Origin: a virus
DNA length: 45,689 nt
Virus genome (UHGV): UHGV-0116669
Direction: 5' to 3' (one strand)
The notes under the pieces: generated by a model
Seen by the model: only the letters and a program-made list of their open reading frames with translations
The model's database searches: none
What the model was told of the DNA's origin: nothing
Translations under genes and position numbers: made by a program
In this document: in pieces, positions 521 to 45,526 of the stretch
Layout of the letters: each line of letters begins with the position of its first letter
How positions within the stretch are numbered: the first letter of the stretch is position 1

Positions 521-708
521 GCTGCACCGCCTTCGCTTTTTTCCGCTTCAACCGCCATCTGCTCAAGCTTTCGTGAAAGCTCGGCAGACAGCGACTGGAA
601 CTCTTCCTCTGTCGCTACCGGGATCGGCACAAAACGGATGCCGATATGAGCGAGGCCATGCGCAGCCTCAAGGCATTTTCTCAAATCAACGGGAGAGGCT
701 TTGTTCAT
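517..708 (-). CDS. hypothetical phage protein
   Basis: 63-aa ORF, translationally coupled within the leftward operon. Confidence 0.35.
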   Translation of the reverse strand: MNKASPVDLRKCLEAAHGLAHIGIRFVPIPVATEEEFQSLSAELSRKLEQMAVEAEKSEGGAA

Positions 709-1349
709 GCTGCACCCCCTTCAACGCGCTTGAACTCGATAACCCAAACCCAGGGGTTGGCATTCCAACTATCTGAGCCGTAGATTGATGCCCACAGGCG
801 CGCGAACACATCAGCTACACAGTCGCCACTTTTCATGTCGGCGGTACTGCAACCTTCGCGTATCGCATCGCCGTCACTGATACTCTTCAGTCGCTCAACC
901 CGCACGCCGGTGATTTCCAGCAGAATGCGGCTGGCCCAGCGCGGCATGTGGATAGATGGTCGCCAGCAGCAATGCAGTTCATCATCTGCATCGTAAAACT
1001 CTGGCGCTGGCACTCCATCAGCCTTGTAAACGCAGAATTCGGGCTTCTCAAACGGAGTGGGGTCTTTGCAATAGCTATCCATTAGGTCGTAGTCGAACAG
1101 TGGCCCCTGAAACGTCTCACGCACCCAAATGCGGTCGCCTGGCTTTCCATAATGGCAAAAATGAGCAGTGGTGCTGCCATTCTTGTGTCTCAGAGATGAT
1201 TTCCAGCCAATCGCTTCTGGGTTAGGGAAAATGCAACGCTCGATATCGTCTGCTGGTTGTGGTGCCATAATCCGCCTGGTCTGTGTCTTCCGACCGTCGA
1301 GAATGGCCCGCACCATCTCAGCATTAAAAATCATTCCGCGCTCAGTCAT
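705..1349 (-). CDS. ASCH-domain-like protein
   Basis: N-terminal MIFNAEMVRAILDGRKTQTRR matches the ASCH-type fold signature (ILxGRKTxTxR). Confidence 0.45.
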   Translation of the reverse strand: MTERGMIFNAEMVRAILDGRKTQTRRIMAPQPADDIERCIFPNPEAIGWKSSLRHKNGSTTAHFCHYGKPGDRIWVRETFQGPLFDYDLMDSYCKDPTPFEKPEFCVYKADGVPAPEFYDADDELHCCWRPSIHMPRWASRILLEITGVRVERLKSISDGDAIREGCSTADMKSGDCVADVFARLWASIYGSDSWNANPWVWVIEFKRVEGGAA

Positions 1350-1686
1350 TCCAGGCCTCCAGCTCGTTCTCTATTTCGTCGTCTATTTCGTCGTTGGTAG
1401 CGTCTTTGTCCAGGTAGTCACGCGCTTCTTTCAGGTACTGTTCATGGCGCTCCCGATACCATGCCGAAAATTCTGGCGTCCATCCGTTCGGCTCACCGTC
1501 ATAGTCAACTTTGGCGTTACGTTCAGCCATACTCTCGACCATGCTGTAGGCGGTGGTAAGAGCCGCTTCGCGGATATACCCGCGCAGGTCACGCTTGCGC
1601 CAGTAAGGGTTAACTTTTGAATCGCAGAAAGGCTTGAATTCCACTTCCCAGCGACGAATGCAACGCGCGTTTAATGACTTGCTCAT
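1342..1686 (-). CDS. hypothetical phage protein
   Basis: 114-aa ORF in the operon, overlapping its neighbours by a few nt. Confidence 0.4.
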   Translation of the reverse strand: MSKSLNARCIRRWEVEFKPFCDSKVNPYWRKRDLRGYIREAALTTAYSMVESMAERNAKVDYDGEPNGWTPEFSAWYRERHEQYLKEARDYLDKDATNDEIDDEIENELEAWND

Positions 1687-1904
1687 GATTCCACTCCATA
1701 GCGGCCGCTAAGCCGCCCAATAACACTGACAAATTTCACCAGGCTGACACCCATCGGCTTTACCTTCTCGTAGTGCTTGCGAAGGATGGGGGGGCATACA
1801 GCGTTCCACTTCGGTTTAGGCTTTACGCTCATCGCTTTTGTTATCTCTTCTGCGCAGCGACGAGCCTGGGCGCGGAGAGCGTTTTCTTTTTCTTCTGGCG
1901 TCAT
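1683..1904 (-). CDS. hypothetical phage protein
   Basis: 73-aa ORF, 4-bp overlaps on both sides. Confidence 0.35.
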   Translation of the reverse strand: MTPEEKENALRAQARRCAEEITKAMSVKPKPKWNAVCPPILRKHYEKVKPMGVSLVKFVSVIGRLSGRYGVES

Positions 1905-2557
1905 GCTGCCTCCGTCTTCACTACGTCGATGGCGCAGCCGGGTATCAGTTCAACGGAAGAGGTGGCGCATTGGTTCCCCCAGTGGCTCCAGCCTGGCGCT
2001 GCGCTGCGACTGAACAGCTCAATCCGCGGCACGTCGCCGTAGAGCAGCTCCAGGCGGTGGCGAACTTCCCACGGTTTCTCGCTGTGTGCGCCGAGAGGGC
2101 TATAGACCACCTGCTTAATGCCGGCGTGCTTGCGTTCCAGCCCGGCGCCGCGGGTGGCGATCAGCACGTCTTCGGTGTTGGCGCGGGTGTGGTTACCACC
2201 GTTCATGCGTGTCTCGGCATTCAGCAGGTCGAGGAAGTCGTAAAAGTCGGTCACATCTCCCTCTGCCAGAGCCTTGGTAATGCGCAGCTCAGCCAGCTGG
2301 TTCAACTTCACCCAGGTGAAGCCCTTCATCGTGCGCACCGTAAATCCCCAGGCCTCGGCCAGTTCGATCGCCGCCTGGTTGTGGGTGCCGGTGTACCACA
2401 TCGCCAACACAGCGTTATCCGCGGCGAGCTGCCACACCGGGAGCCGCTTCATATCGAGCAAGCTCATGGTGGGGTAGTGATCGACGGCGGCACCGTTGCT
2501 GATCGTGTTCCCGTAAGACCAGGCCGGGTCGGCATAGATAAGTGAGTAGCGGTTCAT
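1901..2557 (-). CDS. MT-A70-family DNA N6-adenine methyltransferase
   Basis: 218 aa; N-terminal YSLIYADPAW (a DPPW-type motif) followed by typical MT-A70 architecture. Confidence 0.7.
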   Translation of the reverse strand: MNRYSLIYADPAWSYGNTISNGAAVDHYPTMSLLDMKRLPVWQLAADNAVLAMWYTGTHNQAAIELAEAWGFTVRTMKGFTWVKLNQLAELRITKALAEGDVTDFYDFLDLLNAETRMNGGNHTRANTEDVLIATRGAGLERKHAGIKQVVYSPLGAHSEKPWEVRHRLELLYGDVPRIELFSRSAAPGWSHWGNQCATSSVELIPGCAIDVVKTEAA

Positions 2558-2988
2558 AGGACTGACTCCATTTCATCGATATAGAGGCCAGATGCGATAA
2601 GCCGGCGGCGCCGGGCCGCTTTATCAATACATTTCTGGCGGTTGCCAGAGGCGGCCTGAGCTATCGAGCGCTTAGTGAACAGGCGAGTTTTACCCTGCGG
2701 GGTAATGACCTTTGGCCTTGTGATCAGGTCAAAGGTGCGATCGCAGATGCCGTCCTCGTTGAGCCAGGTTTCCGATGCGATCAGCTGCGCAATGCGGCCT
2801 TCTCCCTTGGTTATGCCGTTCGCAACGCGGTTAAATTCAATAAGCGTCACGCCGAACTTCTCCGCTATTTCGCTGCCGGTAACAGGGCGGCCGCGCGTCT
2901 GGATCATCCATATCACACGCTCGCGAAGGCCGGAGAATTTCCCTGCTTTTCCGGGCCTGCGGTAAAATGGAGTGCGTTTCATTTCCAC
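2554..2988 (-). CDS. hypothetical protein, possible DNA-binding
   Basis: 144-aa ORF coupled to neighbours; very basic C-terminus. Confidence 0.35.
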
Positions 2989-3659
2989 TGCTCCCCGAAG
3001 GTAAAGCCTATCTCCGCCAGCGATTCATCCATCTTGCTGATGAACTCCGGCACCATTTCGTTGAAGACGCTCATGTATTTGTCGTCTCGCTCAACGACCA
3101 CGTGGTGAATGCCTTCTCGCCTCATGCGAGGGTCATAATTCGCGAAATACCAGGCATCCTTCCCGGTTACCCACATGCTGAATTGCACCTGGGCCATGTA
3201 GGCGGATTTGATAGCCTCGAAGCCGCCAAGCCGGAATTTCATGAAGTCGCGAGAGGTGAAAGGACACTTCAGCTCAAGGCCGCGGCCATCACTGCACAGG
3301 CCGTCTGGTGAGCAGGCGGTGCGCATACCTTCGTCACGGAAAAGGATCGGCGACTCGATTACCTTCACGTCGGTGGTGAACTCAAACAGGGTGCGAGCGT
3401 CGGCCTCATACTGTTTCCCCCAGGCCAGCGCCTTGGCGTTAACTTCCGGTGCCGCGCCGGTGCAAACCTCTGCGAGCAGCGTGTGGAAATAAGACATTTT
3501 CATGTCAGTCCACTTGGTGCCTGATCTCGGCTTCGAAATGACGTTATGGACTTCCGAGGCGGTGATCACGCCCAGGCGTAATCGGTGCCAGGATTCATCA
3601 CCCTGCTCAACGCGGGTAACGTCAATGCCAGTTCGCTCGAGGATAATTTTTGGTGTCAT
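2979..3659 (-). CDS. YqaJ-type viral recombinase exonuclease (lambda Exo-like)
   Basis: 226 aa; position immediately downstream of RecT, with a conserved acidic/Lys catalytic pattern (PDG...ELK). Confidence 0.7.
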
Positions 3660-5605: not shown

Positions 5606-6283
5606 TCATGGAATATTCAATATCTTAGCATCGACTACAACCCCTACAATCCTACAGTTTCCGTTAATTTCAATCATCGGATACTGTGGGTTTAAGGGCT
5701 TCAGGAAGCGCCTTCCAGCATCAATTACTAACTTTTTGAAAGTGGCTTCATTATCGCCTTCCAACTTGGCCACAACCAATTTCCCATTAATAGGCTCTAC
5801 TTCAGGATCAACCAGGATAGCTGCACCTTCAGGAATGCTAAGGCCGACAGGAGATGTCATAGAATCGCCGTGGACATCTAACCAGAAAGAATCGTCAGAG
5901 CATTCGACGGTTGTTTCATACCAGCGGTCAATCGCTCTACGGTGATAAGGCTCCACTGCTTCCATCCACTGTCCGGCACTAACCCAGCTGATCACTGGGT
6001 AGCTCCCCTGAGGGGTATTTACTGATCTGAATGTTACGTTCGTGTGGTTCTCTTTGGCATGTAACGTATCCATCCAGCCGAAAGGCAGATTGAGTGCAGA
6101 TTCAATTCTACGAGCCATTTTATCGCCGATGTTTCTATGAGGTTTATCACCTATCAGCTGACTCAGCGCTGCTGGGCTTGTATCGATAAGCTCTGCAAAT
6201 TGAGCCTTGTTCAGGCCTGCATCTACACGCTGCTGTTCGATCAAGTTCTCCAGATTCGCTTTTCTAATCTCTTTATTTTCCAT
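5606..6283 (-). CDS. cI: cI-like prophage repressor (XRE HTH plus S24 LexA-like autopeptidase domain)
   Basis: Start placed at the in-frame ATG giving MENKEIRKANL...; HTH motif QFAELIDTSPAALSQL; C-terminal GDSM serine and FKKL lysine of the S24 dyad are both present. Confidence 0.75.
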   Translation of the reverse strand: MENKEIRKANLENLIEQQRVDAGLNKAQFAELIDTSPAALSQLIGDKPHRNIGDKMARRIESALNLPFGWMDTLHAKENHTNVTFRSVNTPQGSYPVISWVSAGQWMEAVEPYHRRAIDRWYETTVECSDDSFWLDVHGDSMTSPVGLSIPEGAAILVDPEVEPINGKLVVAKLEGDNEATFKKLVIDAGRRFLKPLNPQYPMIEINGNCRIVGVVVDAKILNIP

Positions 6284-6300
6284 CTGCTCATTTTTGTCAT

Positions 6301-6319
6301 TTTTAGCAGAATGATAAAT
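6301..6319. promoter_or_regulatory. operator OR3-like site TTTTAGC-N5-GATAAAT (12/14 to the palindrome), adjacent to the cI start
   Basis: Matches the ATTTAGC-N5-GCTAAAT consensus; a further candidate site at 6317-6335. Confidence 0.4.
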
Positions 6320-6340
6320 ATGCAAATTGCTAAATCTTTC

Positions 6341-6369
6341 TTGATTAGTATTTAGCATAACGCTAAACT
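6341..6369 (+). promoter_or_regulatory. candidate pR: -35 TTGATT (6341-6346), 17-bp spacer, -10 TAAACT (6364-6369)
   Basis: Hexamers and spacing sit upstream of the cro-like gene; operator OR1 overlaps the spacer and -10. Confidence 0.45.
6350..6368. promoter_or_regulatory. operator OR1, ATTTAGC-ATAAC-GCTAAAC (13/14 palindrome)
   Basis: Same palindrome family as OL1. Confidence 0.55.
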
Positions 6370-6398
6370 CCATTTTAAATAAGTCACGGGGAGGTCCC

Positions 6399-6632
6399 AT
6401 GAGTAATGAACTTTTACGCTGGCGAAAAGATGCCAGCACAGGCGAGTGGGCTCAGTTGGCAAAACTGGCAAACACAACCGTTGGTTATCTGGATCAAATC
6501 GCCTATGGAAACCGTCGGGCATCGCCTGAGAAGGCAGAGGCAATAGAAGAGGCCACCAAAGGGTTTAGCCATTACCAACCAGTATCAAAAGAGAGCCTTG
6601 TTTTTTCACGTCCGCGATGTTCCGCGGCTTAA
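6399..6632 (+). CDS. cro: Cro-like / YdaS-type HTH regulator
   Basis: 77 aa; divergent from cI; strong RBS GGGGAGG; HTH-like EWAQLAKLANTTVGYLDQIAYG. Confidence 0.55.
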   Translation: MSNELLRWRKDASTGEWAQLAKLANTTVGYLDQIAYGNRRASPEKAEAIEEATKGFSHYQPVSKESLVFSRPRCSAA

Positions 6633-15989: not shown

Positions 15990-16065
15990 GCTGGTTTAGC
16001 TCAGCAGGTAGAGCGCCTGCCTTGTAAGCAGGATGTCGGCGGTTCGATTCCGTCAACCAGCACCA
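15990..16065 (+). tRNA. tRNA-Thr (anticodon UGU)
   Basis: Cloverleaf folded by hand: acceptor GCTGGTT/AACCAGC, D-arm GCTC/GAGC, anticodon stem CCTGC/GCAGG with loop CTTGTAA, T-arm GGCGG-TTCGATT-CCGTC, encoded CCA. Confidence 0.8.
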
Positions 16066-16070
16066 ATTCA

Positions 16071-16147
16071 GCGCCATTAGCTCAACCGGAGAGAGCAATA
16101 GCCTTCTAAGCTATCGGTTTCAGGTTCGAGTCCTGAATGGTGCGCCA
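16071..16147 (+). tRNA. tRNA-Arg (anticodon UCU)
   Basis: Acceptor GCGCCAT/ATGGTGC (one G-U pair), anticodon stem ATAGC/GCTAT with loop CTTCTAA, T-arm TCAGG-TTCGAGT-CCTGA, encoded CCA. Confidence 0.8.
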
Positions 16148-39104: not shown

Positions 39105-40130
39105 TTGAATAATTCAGCCATGCCACTGCGTCTGACGGTGGTCTTTGCCGCGTCTGGCGATCGTAACAGCATTCCTACCGACGCCACCACCGAAACACTG
39201 AATGGGGGAAAGGCATCATTCGATGTTGGCTTCCCCCCAATCACCAGAGTCGCTCTCTCATCAGGCGGGAAACCACCTCAAGGTCAGGATTTTAACGGTA
39301 TATTCTATGAGTCTTTTTTGAGGCACCAGTGGAATCAGGCTGGGGGTGGATATCCATTTGATTCGGCTTATGCAACCGCTATTGGCGGTTACCCAAAAGG
39401 GGCCGTTGTTCCATTTAGCACTCTCGACGGTCTTTGGCTGAACACCCTCAATAGCAACAATGGGACACCTGAAAATACAGGTGGTGGCGCATCAGGGTGG
39501 GTCCCTTTGTCAAGTTATGGTATTTCGTCAATAACTGCATCCGGATCTGCAAATATCACGCTGACTGCCTTGCAGGCATCACGTCCAGAAATAGTTATCA
39601 GCGGAGTGCTAACTGGGAATATTTATTTGTATTTCCCTCCGTGGATTAAAGAATGGAAGGTCACAAATAATACCTCTGGTGGATTTAATGTCGTTTGCAA
39701 AACAATTGGCGGGAGCAATACGGCAACATTATATCCTGCAGGGCGGGGACATATTCACTGCGATGGAACGAATGTTTATTTCGTAGATGCTACCAGTGGC
39801 CCCGGGCAGTCCGGAGGGTTACTTTTTGGGAATGGTGCTCGTCTTGCCTGGGGTTATACGGATGCCAATTGCAATGTTGCTGGGGCCGATGGTGAATACG
39901 AAACGGATAACATTTTTGTTACCCCAACGTTTACAACCAGCGACGGGGTATTTGGATTTAATACCATCTGTTCGGTAAAAGTGATGCCGGTTGATATTTC
40001 TGGGGTCGGACAGAATGAACGCTCATGGCTTATGGACTCGACGTTTTCAGGAAATGGTTTTTCATTTCGTTCTGCATGCAAGACGCAGAACGCAACCATT
40101 AGAACTCGCTGGGAAGTAATAGGATTCTGA
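39105..40130 (+). CDS. tail fiber protein
   Basis: N-terminal LNGGKASFDVGFPPITRVALSSGGKPPQGQDFNGIFYESFLRHQWNQAGG is a typical fiber N-terminal attachment domain; AT-richer than neighbours. Confidence 0.65.
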   Translation: MNNSAMPLRLTVVFAASGDRNSIPTDATTETLNGGKASFDVGFPPITRVALSSGGKPPQGQDFNGIFYESFLRHQWNQAGGGYPFDSAYATAIGGYPKGAVVPFSTLDGLWLNTLNSNNGTPENTGGGASGWVPLSSYGISSITASGSANITLTALQASRPEIVISGVLTGNIYLYFPPWIKEWKVTNNTSGGFNVVCKTIGGSNTATLYPAGRGHIHCDGTNVYFVDATSGPGQSGGLLFGNGARLAWGYTDANCNVAGADGEYETDNIFVTPTFTTSDGVFGFNTICSVKVMPVDISGVGQNERSWLMDSTFSGNGFSFRSACKTQNATIRTRWEVIGF

Positions 40131-40131
40131 T

Positions 40132-42558
40132 ATGGCAACTACAGACACCCAACAGGCCGCGCAATTTTCTGCTGAGGCAGCAGTTAGTGCTGCCGAAGCA
40201 AAACAATATTTAATTGAAGCTCAGCAGGGATACCAGGACACAAGCGAAGCCGCGCAGGAAGCGAAAAATGCAGCTGAATCAGCTTCGTCATCGGAACAAA
40301 ATGCAGCTACCTCAGAAGCTAATGCGTTACAGTCAGCTACAGAGGCTAGCGCAGCAAGGGACGAGGCTGTGGTTGCAGCATCAACCGCGTCAGAATTCGG
40401 CGACAATAAATTCACTTTCTACAAAACCTCAAGTGACCCGGATGGAACGATAGCGGGTCTGGCAGCTACAACCAATGGGCAGTCGTTTCGTGTAGCTCAG
40501 GGTGTAGATGGAACTGATGCTTTCATTACCTACCAGAACGACAATGGCGTGGCTGTGGCTCAAGCCGCACAGCCTGGGACTGCAGCTATCACTGGTACAG
40601 TGAGGGAATATTCTACACTCTCGCTTGCTGAAAACGATGTTGCGGCTGGGAATATTCTTGATGGTTCAAAATGCTGGGTCGCAAATGATAATCTCGTTCT
40701 CTCCGATGAATATATCAATAACGGTGGGACGTTAGAGAAAACAGGCAGGACGGCAACATCTAAAGAATATATTGATAATTTAATTTATCTGGAAGTTGCC
40801 AGGATAATGGCGTCTGGAGCAGCGCAAACTGCCAGTATTTATCCCGATATTGCACAATTAACTCTGGACGAAGTAGGTCACGCAACATACAGGCGCTTGT
40901 CAGATGGAACCAGCCAATTTCCTGCTCTGATGGTTGGCGCTGAGATTGAGTTTGTGCAACTGGAAGGCGGTGGATTTGTCTGTCAAAGGCGTGCCACTGG
41001 CGAAGAAATATTTAATATTTCTTCGCTGGGTTACATTACTAATGGAAACCTGACTTCGTGGTTTACAGATGATGAAAGTATCAGTGACTATTCTGAAATT
41101 CACATGGATCCACAGGGCCGGATTTACCGAAGGGTGCGCAGGGATGGTACCGTTGAGCAGGTGGGCGATGACACACCTGATGATGACGCCTCTGAATTCC
41201 CAATGGTTGCTTCAGTAGATGGAAATATCATTGCGGTAGATGGCAGCGATGTAACTCAGATCACGAACGACTCCGGAGTTTCAAATATTGCGCCAGTGGC
41301 ATATGCGGAATTTTTGCGTTATTTGTCGAATGTCAGCGGCAACTACATCACTTATCGATCCACTTATGACGGGAATTACCGGGCGCGAGAGTCATTGCGC
41401 TTTCTTGTACACCTGATTATAACTGGCCAGTCTCTTGCTGCAGGCGGCTCAACGCAAGCACAAAGCCCTGTAACGACAACAGCGCAGGCAGATTACGGCA
41501 TACTCTCGTTTGAGACCGGCCCGAAAGTCGATTTTAAGTATGACACGCTGAATGAATCGCTCCTTGAGGCTGTCATCCCATGCCGGGAGAATGCTGGGAC
41601 GCGACCTGGACAGGAGTCGCCATCAAGCGGTATGGCGTTTAAAATTCATGATCTCACCGGGCATACGGTTCTGGTTTCCGATGCGTGCTCATCCGGTACT
41701 GCAATTGCCGACATTTCATCCGGTTCAGCGACTTTTACCGGTGCAACGAAAATGATTCAGTCAGCTGTAGCCATGGCTGAAAAGCTGGGTATGCAGTATG
41801 TTCCCGTAATGGTGCTTATTCACGGTAATCAGAATGCAGCAGCAGGCACATCTATATCCAGTTATCGCGCCGCAATGGAGACTCTCCGTGCTCAGTATGA
41901 GTCTGTCATTAACGCGGCAACAGGAAAAAGACAGTCGCTTCACATGTTTGTCGGCCAGCTATCTAATACCATTCCATACGGCGGAACTGCCGGCACGACC
42001 AAAACCAATAACATCGGTATTGCACAGTACCAGGAGGCCCGTGATAACGCATTAATCCATCTTGCCAGCGCACAGTATGCCCGCCCGTATTCAGACGGTG
42101 AGCATCTGACCAGCGCAGGGTATCGGACAGAAGGCGAAGTTATTGGCGCGGTGGTTGGTGGGTGGCTGAATGACAATACAAAATCCTCTCTCGCGCCGAT
42201 AGAGTCTGGTGTTGTGCAGTCCGGAACCACAATCACTATTCCAGTGGCGGGTTGTGTTGGTGATCTCGTGATTGACACCTCGAGGGTTACCGATCCAGGC
42301 AACTACGGCTTTGTCCTGACCGGGGCCACTATTGCTTCGGTAGCCGTTAGCGGAAGCGGAACAACAGCAAAAATAGTTATCACCAAGACCGATTCTACCA
42401 CTGCGACATTGATATCTTATGCAAGCCAGGGGATTGCCGGACAAAACCCCGGGCCTGTAACTGGTTCACGCGGGTGTATCAGAGATTCCCAAACAGGGAC
42501 GTCACTATCAGGCCTGCCTCTCTATAACGACCTTTGCGTTTTCTCCATTCAGCTTTAA
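40132..42558 (+). CDS. large tail fiber / tail spike with a C-terminal SGNH/GDSL-type esterase-like domain
   Basis: 808 aa; N-terminal Ala/Ser/Glu repeat rod; RFLVHLIITGQSLAAGGS (GQSxxxG esterase motif block) in the C-terminal half. Confidence 0.6.
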   Translation: MATTDTQQAAQFSAEAAVSAAEAKQYLIEAQQGYQDTSEAAQEAKNAAESASSSEQNAATSEANALQSATEASAARDEAVVAASTASEFGDNKFTFYKTSSDPDGTIAGLAATTNGQSFRVAQGVDGTDAFITYQNDNGVAVAQAAQPGTAAITGTVREYSTLSLAENDVAAGNILDGSKCWVANDNLVLSDEYINNGGTLEKTGRTATSKEYIDNLIYLEVARIMASGAAQTASIYPDIAQLTLDEVGHATYRRLSDGTSQFPALMVGAEIEFVQLEGGGFVCQRRATGEEIFNISSLGYITNGNLTSWFTDDESISDYSEIHMDPQGRIYRRVRRDGTVEQVGDDTPDDDASEFPMVASVDGNIIAVDGSDVTQITNDSGVSNIAPVAYAEFLRYLSNVSGNYITYRSTYDGNYRARESLRFLVHLIITGQSLAAGGSTQAQSPVTTTAQADYGILSFETGPKVDFKYDTLNESLLEAVIPCRENAGTRPGQESPSSGMAFKIHDLTGHTVLVSDACSSGTAIADISSGSATFTGATKMIQSAVAMAEKLGMQYVPVMVLIHGNQNAAAGTSISSYRAAMETLRAQYESVINAATGKRQSLHMFVGQLSNTIPYGGTAGTTKTNNIGIAQYQEARDNALIHLASAQYARPYSDGEHLTSAGYRTEGEVIGAVVGGWLNDNTKSSLAPIESGVVQSGTTITIPVAGCVGDLVIDTSRVTDPGNYGFVLTGATIASVAVSGSGTTAKIVITKTDSTTATLISYASQGIAGQNPGPVTGSRGCIRDSQTGTSLSGLPLYNDLCVFSIQL

Positions 42559-43324: not shown

Positions 43325-43333
43325 GGAGTGCAT

Positions 43334-43528
43334 ATGGCTGGCTATATTGCGGATTATCAGGCGACAAAAAACGGTGAGGTAATTTATTCAGGAACGCTTG
43401 CTGTTGAATCAGAAGGAAATGATGCAGCGATAAAAGAAGCAGTGATGGCGGAGCTGAATGCAATAAATATGAAATTTGGTGGTGGAATACCTGATTCTGT
43501 CACAGTAAATTCATGGTCTGCTGAATAA
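43334..43528 (+). CDS. small hypothetical protein (64 aa)
   Basis: AAGGAG RBS 5 nt upstream of the ATG. Confidence 0.4.
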   Translation: MAGYIADYQATKNGEVIYSGTLAVESEGNDAAIKEAVMAELNAINMKFGGGIPDSVTVNSWSAE

Positions 43529-43573
43529 TCAAAACGTTAGCACAGAAGTGTGAATTGATAGTCATGAGCTATA

Positions 43574-43616
43574 TTGATCTTCTCTCTCCATAAAACTACT
43601 GTATATAAAAACAGTA
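43574..43616 (+). promoter_or_regulatory. SOS-regulated promoter: -35 TTGATC (43574-43579) and LexA box TACTGTATATAAAAACAGTA (43597-43616) overlapping the -10
   Basis: Perfect CTGT-N8-ACAG with an AT-rich spacer; strong GGAGGG RBS, then ATG at 43635. Confidence 0.7.
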
Positions 43617-43634
43617 TTTATCGGAGGGCAGATC

Positions 43635-43874
43635 ATGCTTCGACAGTCAGACATCGCCGCGGCTTTCCGCGAGTCGGTATTGCGCAACGCCAAAGGCTAC
43701 CAGTACCTGTACACCCGAGACTTCGTTACCGCGCTGCGCCGGCGCGGCATCCATTTTTCCGAGGTGGAAGCGAACTCCTGGATCGCGCGCGAGCAAACGT
43801 ATTTCGTCGATAAGACGCCGGACCATAGCGAAAACAGGCTGTGGATGATGGCCAACATGGGGAGGGTGATCTAA
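43635..43874 (+). CDS. LexA-controlled small protein of unknown function (79 aa), possibly antirepressor-like
   Basis: First gene after the LexA box; stop overlaps the start of the next gene (TAATG). Confidence 0.5.
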   Translation: MLRQSDIAAAFRESVLRNAKGYQYLYTRDFVTALRRRGIHFSEVEANSWIAREQTYFVDKTPDHSENRLWMMANMGRVI

Positions 43875-44191
43875 TGGGCTTTCCTTCGCCGGCGTCAGAC
43901 TACGTCGAGCAGCGTCTGTCTGTTAACTCGATCTGCAATGTAGGTCCAAACACGCTAGTTTTCGAGCGGTCTGGCGGTTACGTTGTGTTGGATATCTCCC
44001 TGAAACCAAGGCAGGGTAGTCAGGTTCTGATCCAGCACGGCGGCGGGACGGAACTTGCCACGTTGAGAGGGCGGTCGCTGATAACCGAAGATGGCGAAGC
44101 AATTGAAGGTGAGGCCTTGGATGATGTCACTGTCGCAGGCGTCGTGACGCACATCATTTGTGATGTGCGAAGCGATAGCCTGGCGGTTTAA
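43874..44191 (+). CDS. UmuD'-like protein, pre-truncated and lacking the S24 catalytic Ser
   Basis: Begins MGFPSPASDYVEQR, aligning to UmuD immediately after its Cys24-Gly25 cleavage site; C-terminal VAGVVTHIICDV aligns to the UmuD C-terminus (VFGVVIHVVKAM); SGDSM is replaced by SGGYV. Confidence 0.55.
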   Translation: MGFPSPASDYVEQRLSVNSICNVGPNTLVFERSGGYVVLDISLKPRQGSQVLIQHGGGTELATLRGRSLITEDGEAIEGEALDDVTVAGVVTHIICDVRSDSLAV

Positions 44192-44365
44192 CAATGAAAA
44201 AGTGGTGCGCACCGTAACTACAACAAGTATGTCCGCAGTTATGGTGCGATACCTTGCGGATTGAGTAAACGGCCAGTGTTCATTTCTGGATATCTGCTCG
44301 CAGATTTTGGCATCTAAGGAGGTGGCGCAGATGGAACCTGACCCTGGAAGAGTTCGCGTAATGGC

Positions 44366-45526
44366 TTACTGGACTGCACGACCATCGATGTAATCAGCCC
44401 ACCACTGCATCATCTCTCTGCGTTTATCCAGATACTGAGCATGGTTGTAAATTCCGCGTATTGACCCGCTGGCGGTGTGCGCGAGTTGTTTTTCAATCGC
44501 GTCCGCTGGCCAGCCATGCTCATTCATTATTGTGCTGAACTGGTGGCGGAATCCATGCCCGCTCGCCAGCCCCTCATAGCCAATCTGTCGAATAACTAAT
44601 AATACGGCATTTTCGCTGATGGGCTTTTTCTTATCATTCCGCCCGGCGAATACAAAAGAGGAAACAGGGCTTGTGATCGGTTTGAGAGTATTCAGGAGAT
44701 TTATTACCTGATCTGACATCGGAACCACATGAACGCGGCGCCCTTTCATTACCTCTTCGTCGATGGTTATCATCCTGTTTTCAAAGTCGACGTTTTCCCA
44801 TTGCATAGAACGGAGTTCTTTTGTACGCAGCGCAGTATATTGCAAAACCTGTGTGGCAATTTTCGAAATAATACTTCCGGAAAAGCCAGATAGCGCGTTA
44901 TTGAATGCTGGTATCTGATCTGCAGGAAGGAAAGGGTAGTTTTTCTTTCTATATCCCTTCATGGCATCAGCAAGGTCAGGAGCCGGATTATATTTGGCCC
45001 TTCCTGTAACGATCGCATACCTGAATACCTCGCCACATCTTCTTCTGGCTTTATTTGCCCTCTCCATTGCCCCACGTTCTTCAAACCTCCGGATCACCTC
45101 CAGTATCTGCATCGGCTCAATGTCCTGTATTTCCAGATATCCGATCATTGGCAGAATATCGTCACGGAACATGCGAGAAAGTTCATCCGCATATCCTTCT
45201 GACCAAACCTGCCGCTTATGGTCGTACCATTCATGATAAATAGCTGAAAATGAATTGTCCTTCACAGACAACTTTTTGGCCTTAACCGGATCGACCCCGA
45301 CAGAAACATCCTTCCTTGCAGTCCACGCTTTATCCCTGGCTTCCTGCAATGACATGAGAGGGTATTTGCCCACAGTCAGCACCTTCTCTTTGCCGTCGAG
45401 CTTATAGCGCAATTGCCACACCTTTTTGCCAGAGACCGGAACGTACAGGTACAGGCCATTGCTGTCGAGCATTCGGTAGGGTTTGTCTTTAGGCTTGGCG
45501 GCCTCTATCTGCTTAACAGTGAGCAT
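44366..45526 (-). CDS. int: tyrosine integrase, P4/CP4-57 type
   Basis: N-terminal MLTVKQIEAAKPKDKPYRMLDSNGLYLYV arm-binding (DUF4102-type) domain; C-terminal catalytic region with R..HxxR..Y. Confidence 0.9.
   Translation of the reverse strand: MLTVKQIEAAKPKDKPYRMLDSNGLYLYVPVSGKKVWQLRYKLDGKEKVLTVGKYPLMSLQEARDKAWTARKDVSVGVDPVKAKKLSVKDNSFSAIYHEWYDHKRQVWSEGYADELSRMFRDDILPMIGYLEIQDIEPMQILEVIRRFEERGAMERANKARRRCGEVFRYAIVTGRAKYNPAPDLADAMKGYRKKNYPFLPADQIPAFNNALSGFSGSIISKIATQVLQYTALRTKELRSMQWENVDFENRMITIDEEVMKGRRVHVVPMSDQVINLLNTLKPITSPVSSFVFAGRNDKKKPISENAVLLVIRQIGYEGLASGHGFRHQFSTIMNEHGWPADAIEKQLAHTASGSIRGIYNHAQYLDKRREMMQWWADYIDGRAVQ

Follow-up and report, generated by a model that had tools for sequence, protein, structure and literature searches.

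LexA-controlled UmuD' homologues are already known from temperate phages, P1 HumD and N15 gp26 among them. P1 HumD, N15 gp26, and phiKO2 gp23 all start M-G-F-P-S-P-A at the position of UmuD Gly25, and the HumD group has a LexA box directly upstream, no umuC alongside, and the UmuD' fold. HumD reportedly replaces UmuD' functionally, to go by the title of McLenigan 1999 as it appears in reference lists and by the annotation of P1. Here we describe a two-gene cassette that shares these traits in the virus genome UHGV-0116669, a lambdoid temperate phage of Klebsiella, whose entire 45.7-kb sequence (45,689 nucleotides) we refer to as the window. The second open reading frame (ORF) of the cassette, ORF2, begins at the same UmuD position, and it is preceded by a small gene, ORF1. 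With a probability of about one half, we favor the reading that ORF2 is a LexA-derepressed surrogate for UmuD' that needs no RecA-stimulated cleavage and acts on host UmuC, with ORF1 in an accessory role. The elements of the cassette are as follows.

43554..43561, + strand: upstream ATTGATAG element, at the left recombination boundary of the cassette, shared with related cassettes and with the umuDC promoters of Klebsiella and E. coli
43574..43579, + strand: putative -35-like hexamer TTGATC, 17 nt upstream of the TACTGT of the LexA box
43597..43616, + strand: LexA (SOS) box TACTGTATATAAAAACAGTA, 20 bp, unique in the window, its first six bases the likely -10
43623..43628, + strand: Shine-Dalgarno sequence GGAGGG for ORF1, as read from the sequence, in a leader conserved in relatives
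43635..43874, + strand: ORF1, 79 residues, an orphan winged-helix protein (PHROG 3893)
43859..43866, + strand: Shine-Dalgarno sequence GGGGAGGG for ORF2, within the 3' end of ORF1, as read from the sequence
43872-43876, + strand: TAATG stop/start overlap of ORF1 and ORF2, 1 nt, indicating translational coupling
43874..44191, + strand: ORF2, 105 residues, UmuD'-like, pre-truncated and non-catalytic, of the short clade (PHROG 3469)
43877..43915, + strand: ORF2 codons 2-14, the invariant N-terminal arm GFPSPAsDYVEQR

A coupled gene pair behind a umuDC operator

With up to three mismatches allowed against the palindromic consensus TACTG(TA)5CAGTA, the window holds a single LexA box, where 0.01 would be expected from shuffled sequences. 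The box, at 43597-43616, has two mismatches and is identical at 20 of 20 positions to the umuDC operator of E. coli K-12, as read from the annotated genome. A first reading of the window, made from the sequence alone (hereafter the sequence-only reading), had proposed a LexA box driving a coupled two-gene operon beside the integrase, and the unique operator, the TAATG overlap, and an integrase gene on the minus strand at 44366-45526 all agree with it. LexA would be expected to occupy this box in vivo.

The resemblance to umuDC extends beyond the operator. The TTGATC hexamer and its 17-nt spacing are kept in divergent cassettes as well as in E. coli and Klebsiella umuDC, and the whole layout, ATTGATAG...TATTGATC-17-TACTGT, is common to the phage cassette and to the umuDC promoters of both hosts; TATAAA at 43604-43609 is an alternative -10. 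Aligned with a Klebsiella umuDC promoter, the phage upstream region is 74% identical over 92 columns, with a score of 40, while shuffled controls scored -8.9 +/- 4.8 and at most 7. The Klebsiella promoter was taken from a locus (L018) in which a cassette lies 1.4 kb from a canonical umuDC operon, and the umuD of this locus matches annotated umuD in 5,418 of 5,426 E. coli genomes. We infer the cassette promoter from its homology to umuDC promoters and from the conservation of the layout. To judge from these alignments, it is a captured umuDC promoter, which the sequence-only reading overlooked together with the age and spread of the gene pairing described below. In the same L018 locus (600-3414), the cassette belongs to a prophage remnant near the host umuDC, whose operator, TACTGTTTATAAAAACAGTA, is near-identical.

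Across the 197 ORF1 copies in the loci that we fetched, counts of which are descriptive only because the loci are not independent samples, ORF1 is coupled to an ORF with a UmuD' N-terminus in 189. By a strict motif count, the 1-nt overlap is present in 161 of 179 coupled loci. In 181 of the 197 copies, the 90 nt upstream of ORF1 contain a CTG-N10-CAG box, placed 11-24 nt ahead of the ATG. The exceptions to these patterns trace to frameshifts, to insertions of insertion sequences or invertases, to the ends of contigs, or to insertion junctions within the box itself. The cassette never includes umuC; the sole umuC-like match among the loci belongs to the neighboring host operon in L018. An ORF1-like gene also stands directly before a UmuD'-like gene in HK140 (gp27/gp28), mEp390, HK225, Cronobacter phage phiES15, and phages of Enterobacter and Erwinia, always downstream of the tail fiber and before the phage attachment site (attP) and int. 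Metagenomic relatives at 35-36% identity have the same arrangement, and ORF1 relatives at 35% identity still carry the upstream box. The cassette is very common in prophages of the Klebsiella pneumoniae complex and occurs also in phages of E. coli, Enterobacter, Cronobacter, and Erwinia. Klebsiella hosts carry a canonical umuDC of their own. The pairing of ORF1 with a UmuD'-like gene is ancient and widespread in lambdoid phages of Enterobacterales. Annotation of the first gene is uneven: the mEp390 (NC_019721) homologue of ORF1 (L013, 2262-2501) is unannotated in RefSeq, a 42-residue ORF on the opposite strand being annotated instead, and the records of the Erwinia phages mislabel theirs as 'DNA polymerase V'.

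Dependence within the pair is asymmetric, as ORF1 is almost never found without a UmuD'-like gene, while UmuD'-like genes do occur alone. Examples without ORF1, still behind a LexA box, are found in P1, N15, and Klebsiella phage Kp4873-4. The Kp4873-4 gene (L011, 2441-2821) is the short form, fused directly to the same operator and leader, an arrangement that looks like the precise deletion of ORF1 or like a locus that it never entered. Its upstream neighbor encodes a 387-residue multi-pass membrane protein, a candidate acyltransferase by its look. In HK140 (L004, 1910-2176), mEp390 (L013, 1909-2175), and 79 IMG/VR loci, dinI is the divergent neighbor of ORF1, and one LexA box region probably serves the two genes, making a three-gene SOS-modulation island. 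The window has no dinI, unlike these relatives.

Some natural variants have a box disrupted upstream of locus position 2501. In four loci (L059, L130, L157, and L194), an insertion junction (...GGGAAGACCC|ATATAAAAACAGTA) deletes the left half of the LexA box, and in others (L014, L037, L039, L040, L044, L068, L080, and L093) the whole promoter and box are replaced, to about -18. LexA control should presumably be gone in these variants. Within ORF1, a GC-rich hairpin followed by a T-run (43729-43747, + strand) was flagged as terminator-like; it could have arisen by chance or act as an attenuator internal to the pair.

The UmuD'-like protein and host DNA polymerase V

ORF2 is under purifying selection, with a ratio of nonsynonymous to synonymous substitution rates (dN/dS) of 0.05-0.12, and matches the profile of PHROG 3469, 'UmuD-like', over its full length (1.4e-45, 1-102 of 106), with no match to Pfam PF00717 (S24) at E<=1. 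Short UmuD'-like proteins of this kind form about 1,900 clusters at 90% identity. Residues 2-43 align with UmuD 25-66 (PDB 8gmt/1umu, E about 1e-5), so that ORF2 begins at the N-terminal residue of UmuD', and its N-terminus, MGFPSPASDYVEQR, compares with UmuD G25-FPSPAADYVEQR. The protein is therefore pre-truncated in the manner of UmuD': it starts M-G at the Gly25 position and has neither the cleavable (Cys/Ala)-Gly site nor the N-terminal peptide. As a general rule, an initiator Met is removed before Gly, and mature ORF2 would then begin GFPSPA, as UmuD' does. The predicted structure shows the S24 beta-fold.

In an alignment of ORF2 with UmuD, P1 HumD, N15 gp26, and others, a segment of roughly 12 residues that includes Ser60 is deleted and the column of Lys97 holds Ala, so at the level of the aligned residues the catalytic Ser-Lys dyad has gone. 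The related loci yielded 136 distinct ORF2 sequences, comprising 119 short and 17 long forms. Every one of the 119 short forms lacks the Ser60 column and has A, G, or V at Lys97; the long forms comprise three with Ser/Lys, ten with Thr/Lys, and four with other residues. Those long forms that accompany ORF1 qualify as true HumD equivalogs (222 bits). While the core of ORF2 is exchanged, its C-terminal strand (V87, G89, V90, and T92) and the arm, GFPSPAxDYxExR, stay constant; arm residues G2, F3, P4, S5, P6, A7, D9, Y10, E12, and R14 are each at least 90% conserved across 153 unique pairs. The sequence-only reading had correctly placed the start of the second protein at the UmuD cleavage point and recognized that a C-terminal block of UmuD was kept. 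It was also right that the catalytic Ser is gone, although not in having SGDSM replaced by SGGYV, as the Ser60 segment has been deleted, not substituted. Its comparison with HumD stands for the architecture and fails for membership in the HumD equivalog family, the short forms being a distinct clade.

Under the favored reading, the cassette would be a self-contained SOS 'moron' at the tail-fiber/attP end of the phage, derived from an enterobacterial umuDC operon whose promoter and operator were kept and whose umuC was lost, with ORF1 standing in place of umuD codons 1-24 and umuD retained from the Gly25 codon on. In a lysogen, LexA would be bound to the operator overlapping the -10, and DNA damage, through RecA*-stimulated LexA cleavage, would derepress both genes together. 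After removal of its Met, ORF2 would carry the exact UmuD' N-terminus without the need for RecA*-dependent cleavage and would be incapable of cleaving any target. It could then engage host UmuC via the invariant arm and the dimer-forming core and, like P1 HumD, set the activity of DNA polymerase V (Pol V) at an early stage of the SOS response, with ORF1 working on or with the UmuD'-like dimer as an accessory factor. AlphaFold models of the Pol V mutasome, which their authors compared with published experiments, place the conserved N-terminal end of one UmuD' arm, the element kept in ORF2, inside UmuC near the active site (PMC11791011). Armless UmuD' dimerizes and is non-mutable (PMC11791011).

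Several observations weigh against this reading. In the same models, the C-terminal LLRVK-COOH of UmuC docks on UmuD' S36, T71, K73, and E69 (PMC11791011), which in UmuD numbering (+24) are S60, T95, K97, and E93; in ORF2, the corresponding residues are deleted, E, A, and G. With all four modeled docking residues lost in the short form, productive assembly of Pol V is uncertain. The short form thus appears, from sequence comparison and from the published models, to keep the UmuC-inserting arm and the dimer elements and to have lost the modeled UmuC-tail pocket. On the NCBIfam HumD equivalog profile (NF051876), ORF2 scores 50.7 bits, far below the curated cut-off of 120, where HK140 gp28 scores 221.8, and its structure model is moderately confident (predicted local distance difference test score, pLDDT, 75). 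A generic promoter scan called no plus-strand promoter at the cassette because TACTGT fits just 3/6 positions. One ORF1 cluster is found with 11 long as well as 51 short ORF2 forms. Locus pairs in which ORF1 keeps an identity of at least 75% and the ORF2 core falls to 45% or lower number 629, against just three of the converse kind. The lineages of ORF1 are shuffled among the classes of ORF2, and a tightly co-adapted interface is therefore not evident. Finally, a literature search turned up no experiments on any short-clade protein or ORF1-family member, and nothing on ORF1 or on the ORF1-ORF2 pair.

The loss of the pocket also bears on an opposite outcome, and the short form may activate or poison Pol V. 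As an antagonist of Pol V, it would bind UmuC via the arm, or heterodimerize with host UmuD or UmuD' through the conserved helix and the C-terminal strand, and form inactive complexes that would keep SOS mutagenesis away from the phage genome as it replicates; ORF1 may contribute by filling the docking site of the UmuC tail. This would fit the retention of the arm and C-terminal strand alongside the loss of the modeled holders of the UmuC C-terminus in 119/119 distinct short forms, and also a feature of ORF1, as 110 of 132 distinct ORF1 proteins end G-R-[VI]-x-COOH, resembling the L-R-V-K-COOH end of E. coli UmuC. The resemblance amounts to two residues, was spotted post hoc, and is missing in the NPNGGx clade. 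Moreover, the sole tested phage relative, P1 HumD, promotes mutagenesis according to a paper's title and the P1 annotation, and ORF1 also pairs with the long HumD-equivalog forms, which retain Thr/Ser and Lys. Antagonism is accordingly a possibility that we take seriously but consider unlikely.

The sequence-only reading had also raised the possibility of a RecA* decoy, in which a non-cleavable ORF2 dimer lodged in the groove of the RecA* filament would damp the cleavage of LexA or cI, feeding back on SOS and on prophage induction. UmuD, LexA, lambda CI, and DinI use common features of the RecA groove, and the UmuD contacts to it are Y52, position 54, F94, D91, and E93 (PMC9926225). ORF2 is very acidic (pI 4.4-4.5), and dinI is the divergent neighbor in 79 related loci. 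The contacts, however, are not conserved; D91, E93, and F94 are G, G, and T in ORF2 and vary across the clade, and F18 of the N-terminal peptide is absent from ORF2. These substitutions weaken the decoy idea, which we regard as distinctly improbable.

The winged-helix partner and its phage context

ORF1 is likewise under purifying selection (dN/dS 0.17-0.18). The sequence-only reading had seen no recognizable family in this protein, yet it matches PHROG 3893 (function unknown) along its full length (6.1e-40, 1-79 of 79), and its AlphaFold2 model (pLDDT 91) has the H-S-H-H-S-S topology of a winged helix. No match was found in Pfam, NCBIfam, or PADLOC, nor was a relationship detected to PDB sequences, and a fold search of BFVD returned its own family and one weak match labeled AntA/AntB (E 0.09). 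The family is small: 1.84 billion representatives yielded 79 clusters at 50% identity. Helix 3, the usual recognition position, is net negative (-1 or -2) in 104 of 119 members, and the family as a whole, with a median pI of 9.4 and about +2 in net charge, is mildly basic. The negative helix, the mild basicity, and the acidity of ORF2 lead us to lean toward a protein-binding over a DNA-binding winged helix, and ORF1 is more probably an accessory protein acting on or with the UmuD'-like dimer.

These same properties bear on whether the two proteins might be a split version of a LexA- or UmuDAb-like regulator, ORF1 binding DNA and the ORF2 dimer serving as a non-cleavable dimerization module, to make a damage-induced transcription factor. 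ORF1 is unrelated to the LexA N-terminal domain by profile comparison (probability 0.1%), its helix 3 is mostly net negative in a family with so little net positive charge, and ORF2 can occur without it. We consider such a regulator very unlikely indeed.

A more specific proposal is that ORF1 represents a new class of Pol V regulator, a winged-helix adaptor whose G-R-V-x tail mimics the L-R-V-K of UmuC. Such a tail could dock on the sheet edge of UmuD'-type dimers, whether the phage protein or host UmuD', and prophages might thereby gate when or whether UmuC is loaded. Were this so, prophages of Klebsiella and E. coli could reprogram SOS mutagenesis with the help of an arm-only UmuD' mimic. 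The limits of the tail resemblance given above apply here as well, and we think the proposal quite unlikely. Covariation of the ORF1 tail type with ORF2 columns 55-65 (UmuD 90-100) was also considered as a signal and was dropped because it is confounded by phylogeny and hypervariability.

The gene content of the window includes RecT, a cI/cII immunity region, structural genes, tail fibers, and a tyrosine integrase, and its nearest deposited relative is RCIP0114, at 92% identity across the cassette. Three features set the context of the cassette.

5606..6439, - strand: cI-type repressor, HTH_3 and Peptidase_S24 (Pfam 7e-29 for S24), with GDSM and KK intact; the real start is probably internal
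44192..44365, no strand assigned: spacer between ORF2 and int, the presumed attP region by analogy with HK140 and mEp390
44366..45526, - strand: tyrosine integrase (Pfam Phage_integrase, Phage_int_M, and Arm-DNA-bind_3)

The repressor is relevant to another role suggested for ORF1. The sequence-only reading likened the locus to the LexA-controlled antirepressor modules of Gifsy-type prophages, and ORF1 might then inactivate cI or a heterologous repressor and give the phage a second SOS input, as Tum does in 186. A LexA-controlled gene for a small protein, far from the immunity region, would be in keeping with this, as would the weak AntA/AntB label. The cognate repressors of LexA-controlled antirepressors in 186 and the Gifsy phages are not known to cleave themselves, and an antirepressor is accordingly needed there. 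The cI of the window, by contrast, is to all appearances a canonical self-cleaving S24 repressor, as the sequence-only reading itself had noted, with HTH and S24 domains and an intact self-cleavage module, and for that reason the antirepressor idea is not supported. ORF1 is also unlike DinI/Tum (hhalign probability 0.2%, a different topology, and no Pfam DinI match) and unlike the Pfam Ant families, and it tracks UmuD'-like genes across differing immunity regions in 189/197 copies. The analogy does not hold, and we judge an antirepressor role very unlikely.

The cassette sits between the last tail-fiber-associated genes and the integrase. In blastn comparisons with relatives, the common segment starts at 43553-43574, right at the promoter, and mostly stops at 44148-44169, late in ORF2, which is the behavior of a self-contained moron cassette. 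An attP is annotated between the UmuD-like gene and int in HK140 and mEp390; in the window, the blastn alignment ends cluster within the 3' end of ORF2 and mark no core site. This position, among lysogenic-conversion morons and by Cor and the tail fibers, is typical of exclusion genes, and a defense or superinfection-exclusion moron with no Pol V role might be imagined. Neither protein has a match in PADLOC, however, and the kept umuDC operator and exact UmuD' N-terminus point to the SOS and translesion synthesis pathway, which leaves a defense moron as the least probable of the readings considered.

Other genes of the window were noted in passing. Just outside the left recombination boundary, a 66-residue ORF (43328-43528, + strand) lies between a 250-residue tail-fiber-associated gene and the cassette and has no match in Pfam or PHROG. 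The tail fiber or spike proteins of 808 and 341 residues (40132-42558 and 39105-40130, + strand) have no Pfam match, and two phage-borne tRNA genes, tRNA-Thr(tgt) and tRNA-Arg(tct), are found at 15990-16147 (+ strand).

Significance and comparison with known systems

Damage-induced mutagenesis is driven by Pol V, and its products include the resistance mutations that fluoroquinolones select. If the cassette supplies or blocks UmuD' function without RecA*-dependent cleavage, the prophage content of a strain would shift the timing and level of error-prone repair, and the mutation rates of lysogens and their survival of ultraviolet light and drugs would be affected. Prophages may in this way tune error-prone DNA repair in Klebsiella, an important pathogen. 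As a natural separation-of-function variant of UmuD', with the arm kept and the former active site and UmuC-tail pocket lost, ORF2 may also be usable for testing current models of the Pol V mutasome, and the cassette supplies with it an uncharacterized partner protein, ORF1.

Among described systems, HumD shares the start, fold, and operator placement of ORF2 but is a protein of 129 residues that keeps Ser and Lys and is encoded by a single gene, whereas ORF2 has 105 residues with neither the Ser60 loop nor Lys97, shares about 35% identity with HumD, and is preceded by ORF1. The chromosomal umuDC operons of E. coli and Klebsiella resemble the cassette in an identical or near-identical operator, a homologous promoter, the 1-nt stop/start coupling, and a homologous UmuD' part. 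The cassette differs from them in having neither umuC nor the catalytic dyad, and in the replacement of codons 1-24, the cleavable peptide, by an unrelated gene for 79 residues. In umuD, these codons also carry protease and clamp-binding determinants. HK140 gp27/gp28 and mEp390 (Hendrixvirinae) share the ORF1 family, the position between tail fiber and attP-int, and the LexA box, although their cassettes are about 50% identical to that of the window and have a divergent dinI sharing the operator region, absent here; mEp390 carries the short form, as the window does, and HK140 the long HumD-equivalog form.

Two further systems place a small protein beside a UmuD homologue. The impCAB-type plasmid operons are LexA-controlled, with a small accessory gene of about 80 residues before the umuD-like ImpA; a third gene of the imp operon reportedly exists, judging by the title of Lodwick 1990 in a reference list, and ImpC is a small, DinI-like protein. 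ORF1, a winged helix, is not DinI-like, and the cassette, unlike these operons, has no polymerase gene. In Acinetobacter, DdrR is a small lineage-specific protein that reportedly works with a UmuD homologue, UmuDAb. UmuDAb is a full-length, DNA-binding, self-cleaving repressor and ddrR is divergently transcribed, unlike ORF2 and ORF1, and no search detected homology between DdrR and ORF1. Against this background, what is new in the phage cassette is the dominant short clade that lacks both the dyad and the modeled UmuC-tail pocket, the apparent origin of the promoter by capture from umuDC, and the conserved, uncharacterized winged-helix partner.

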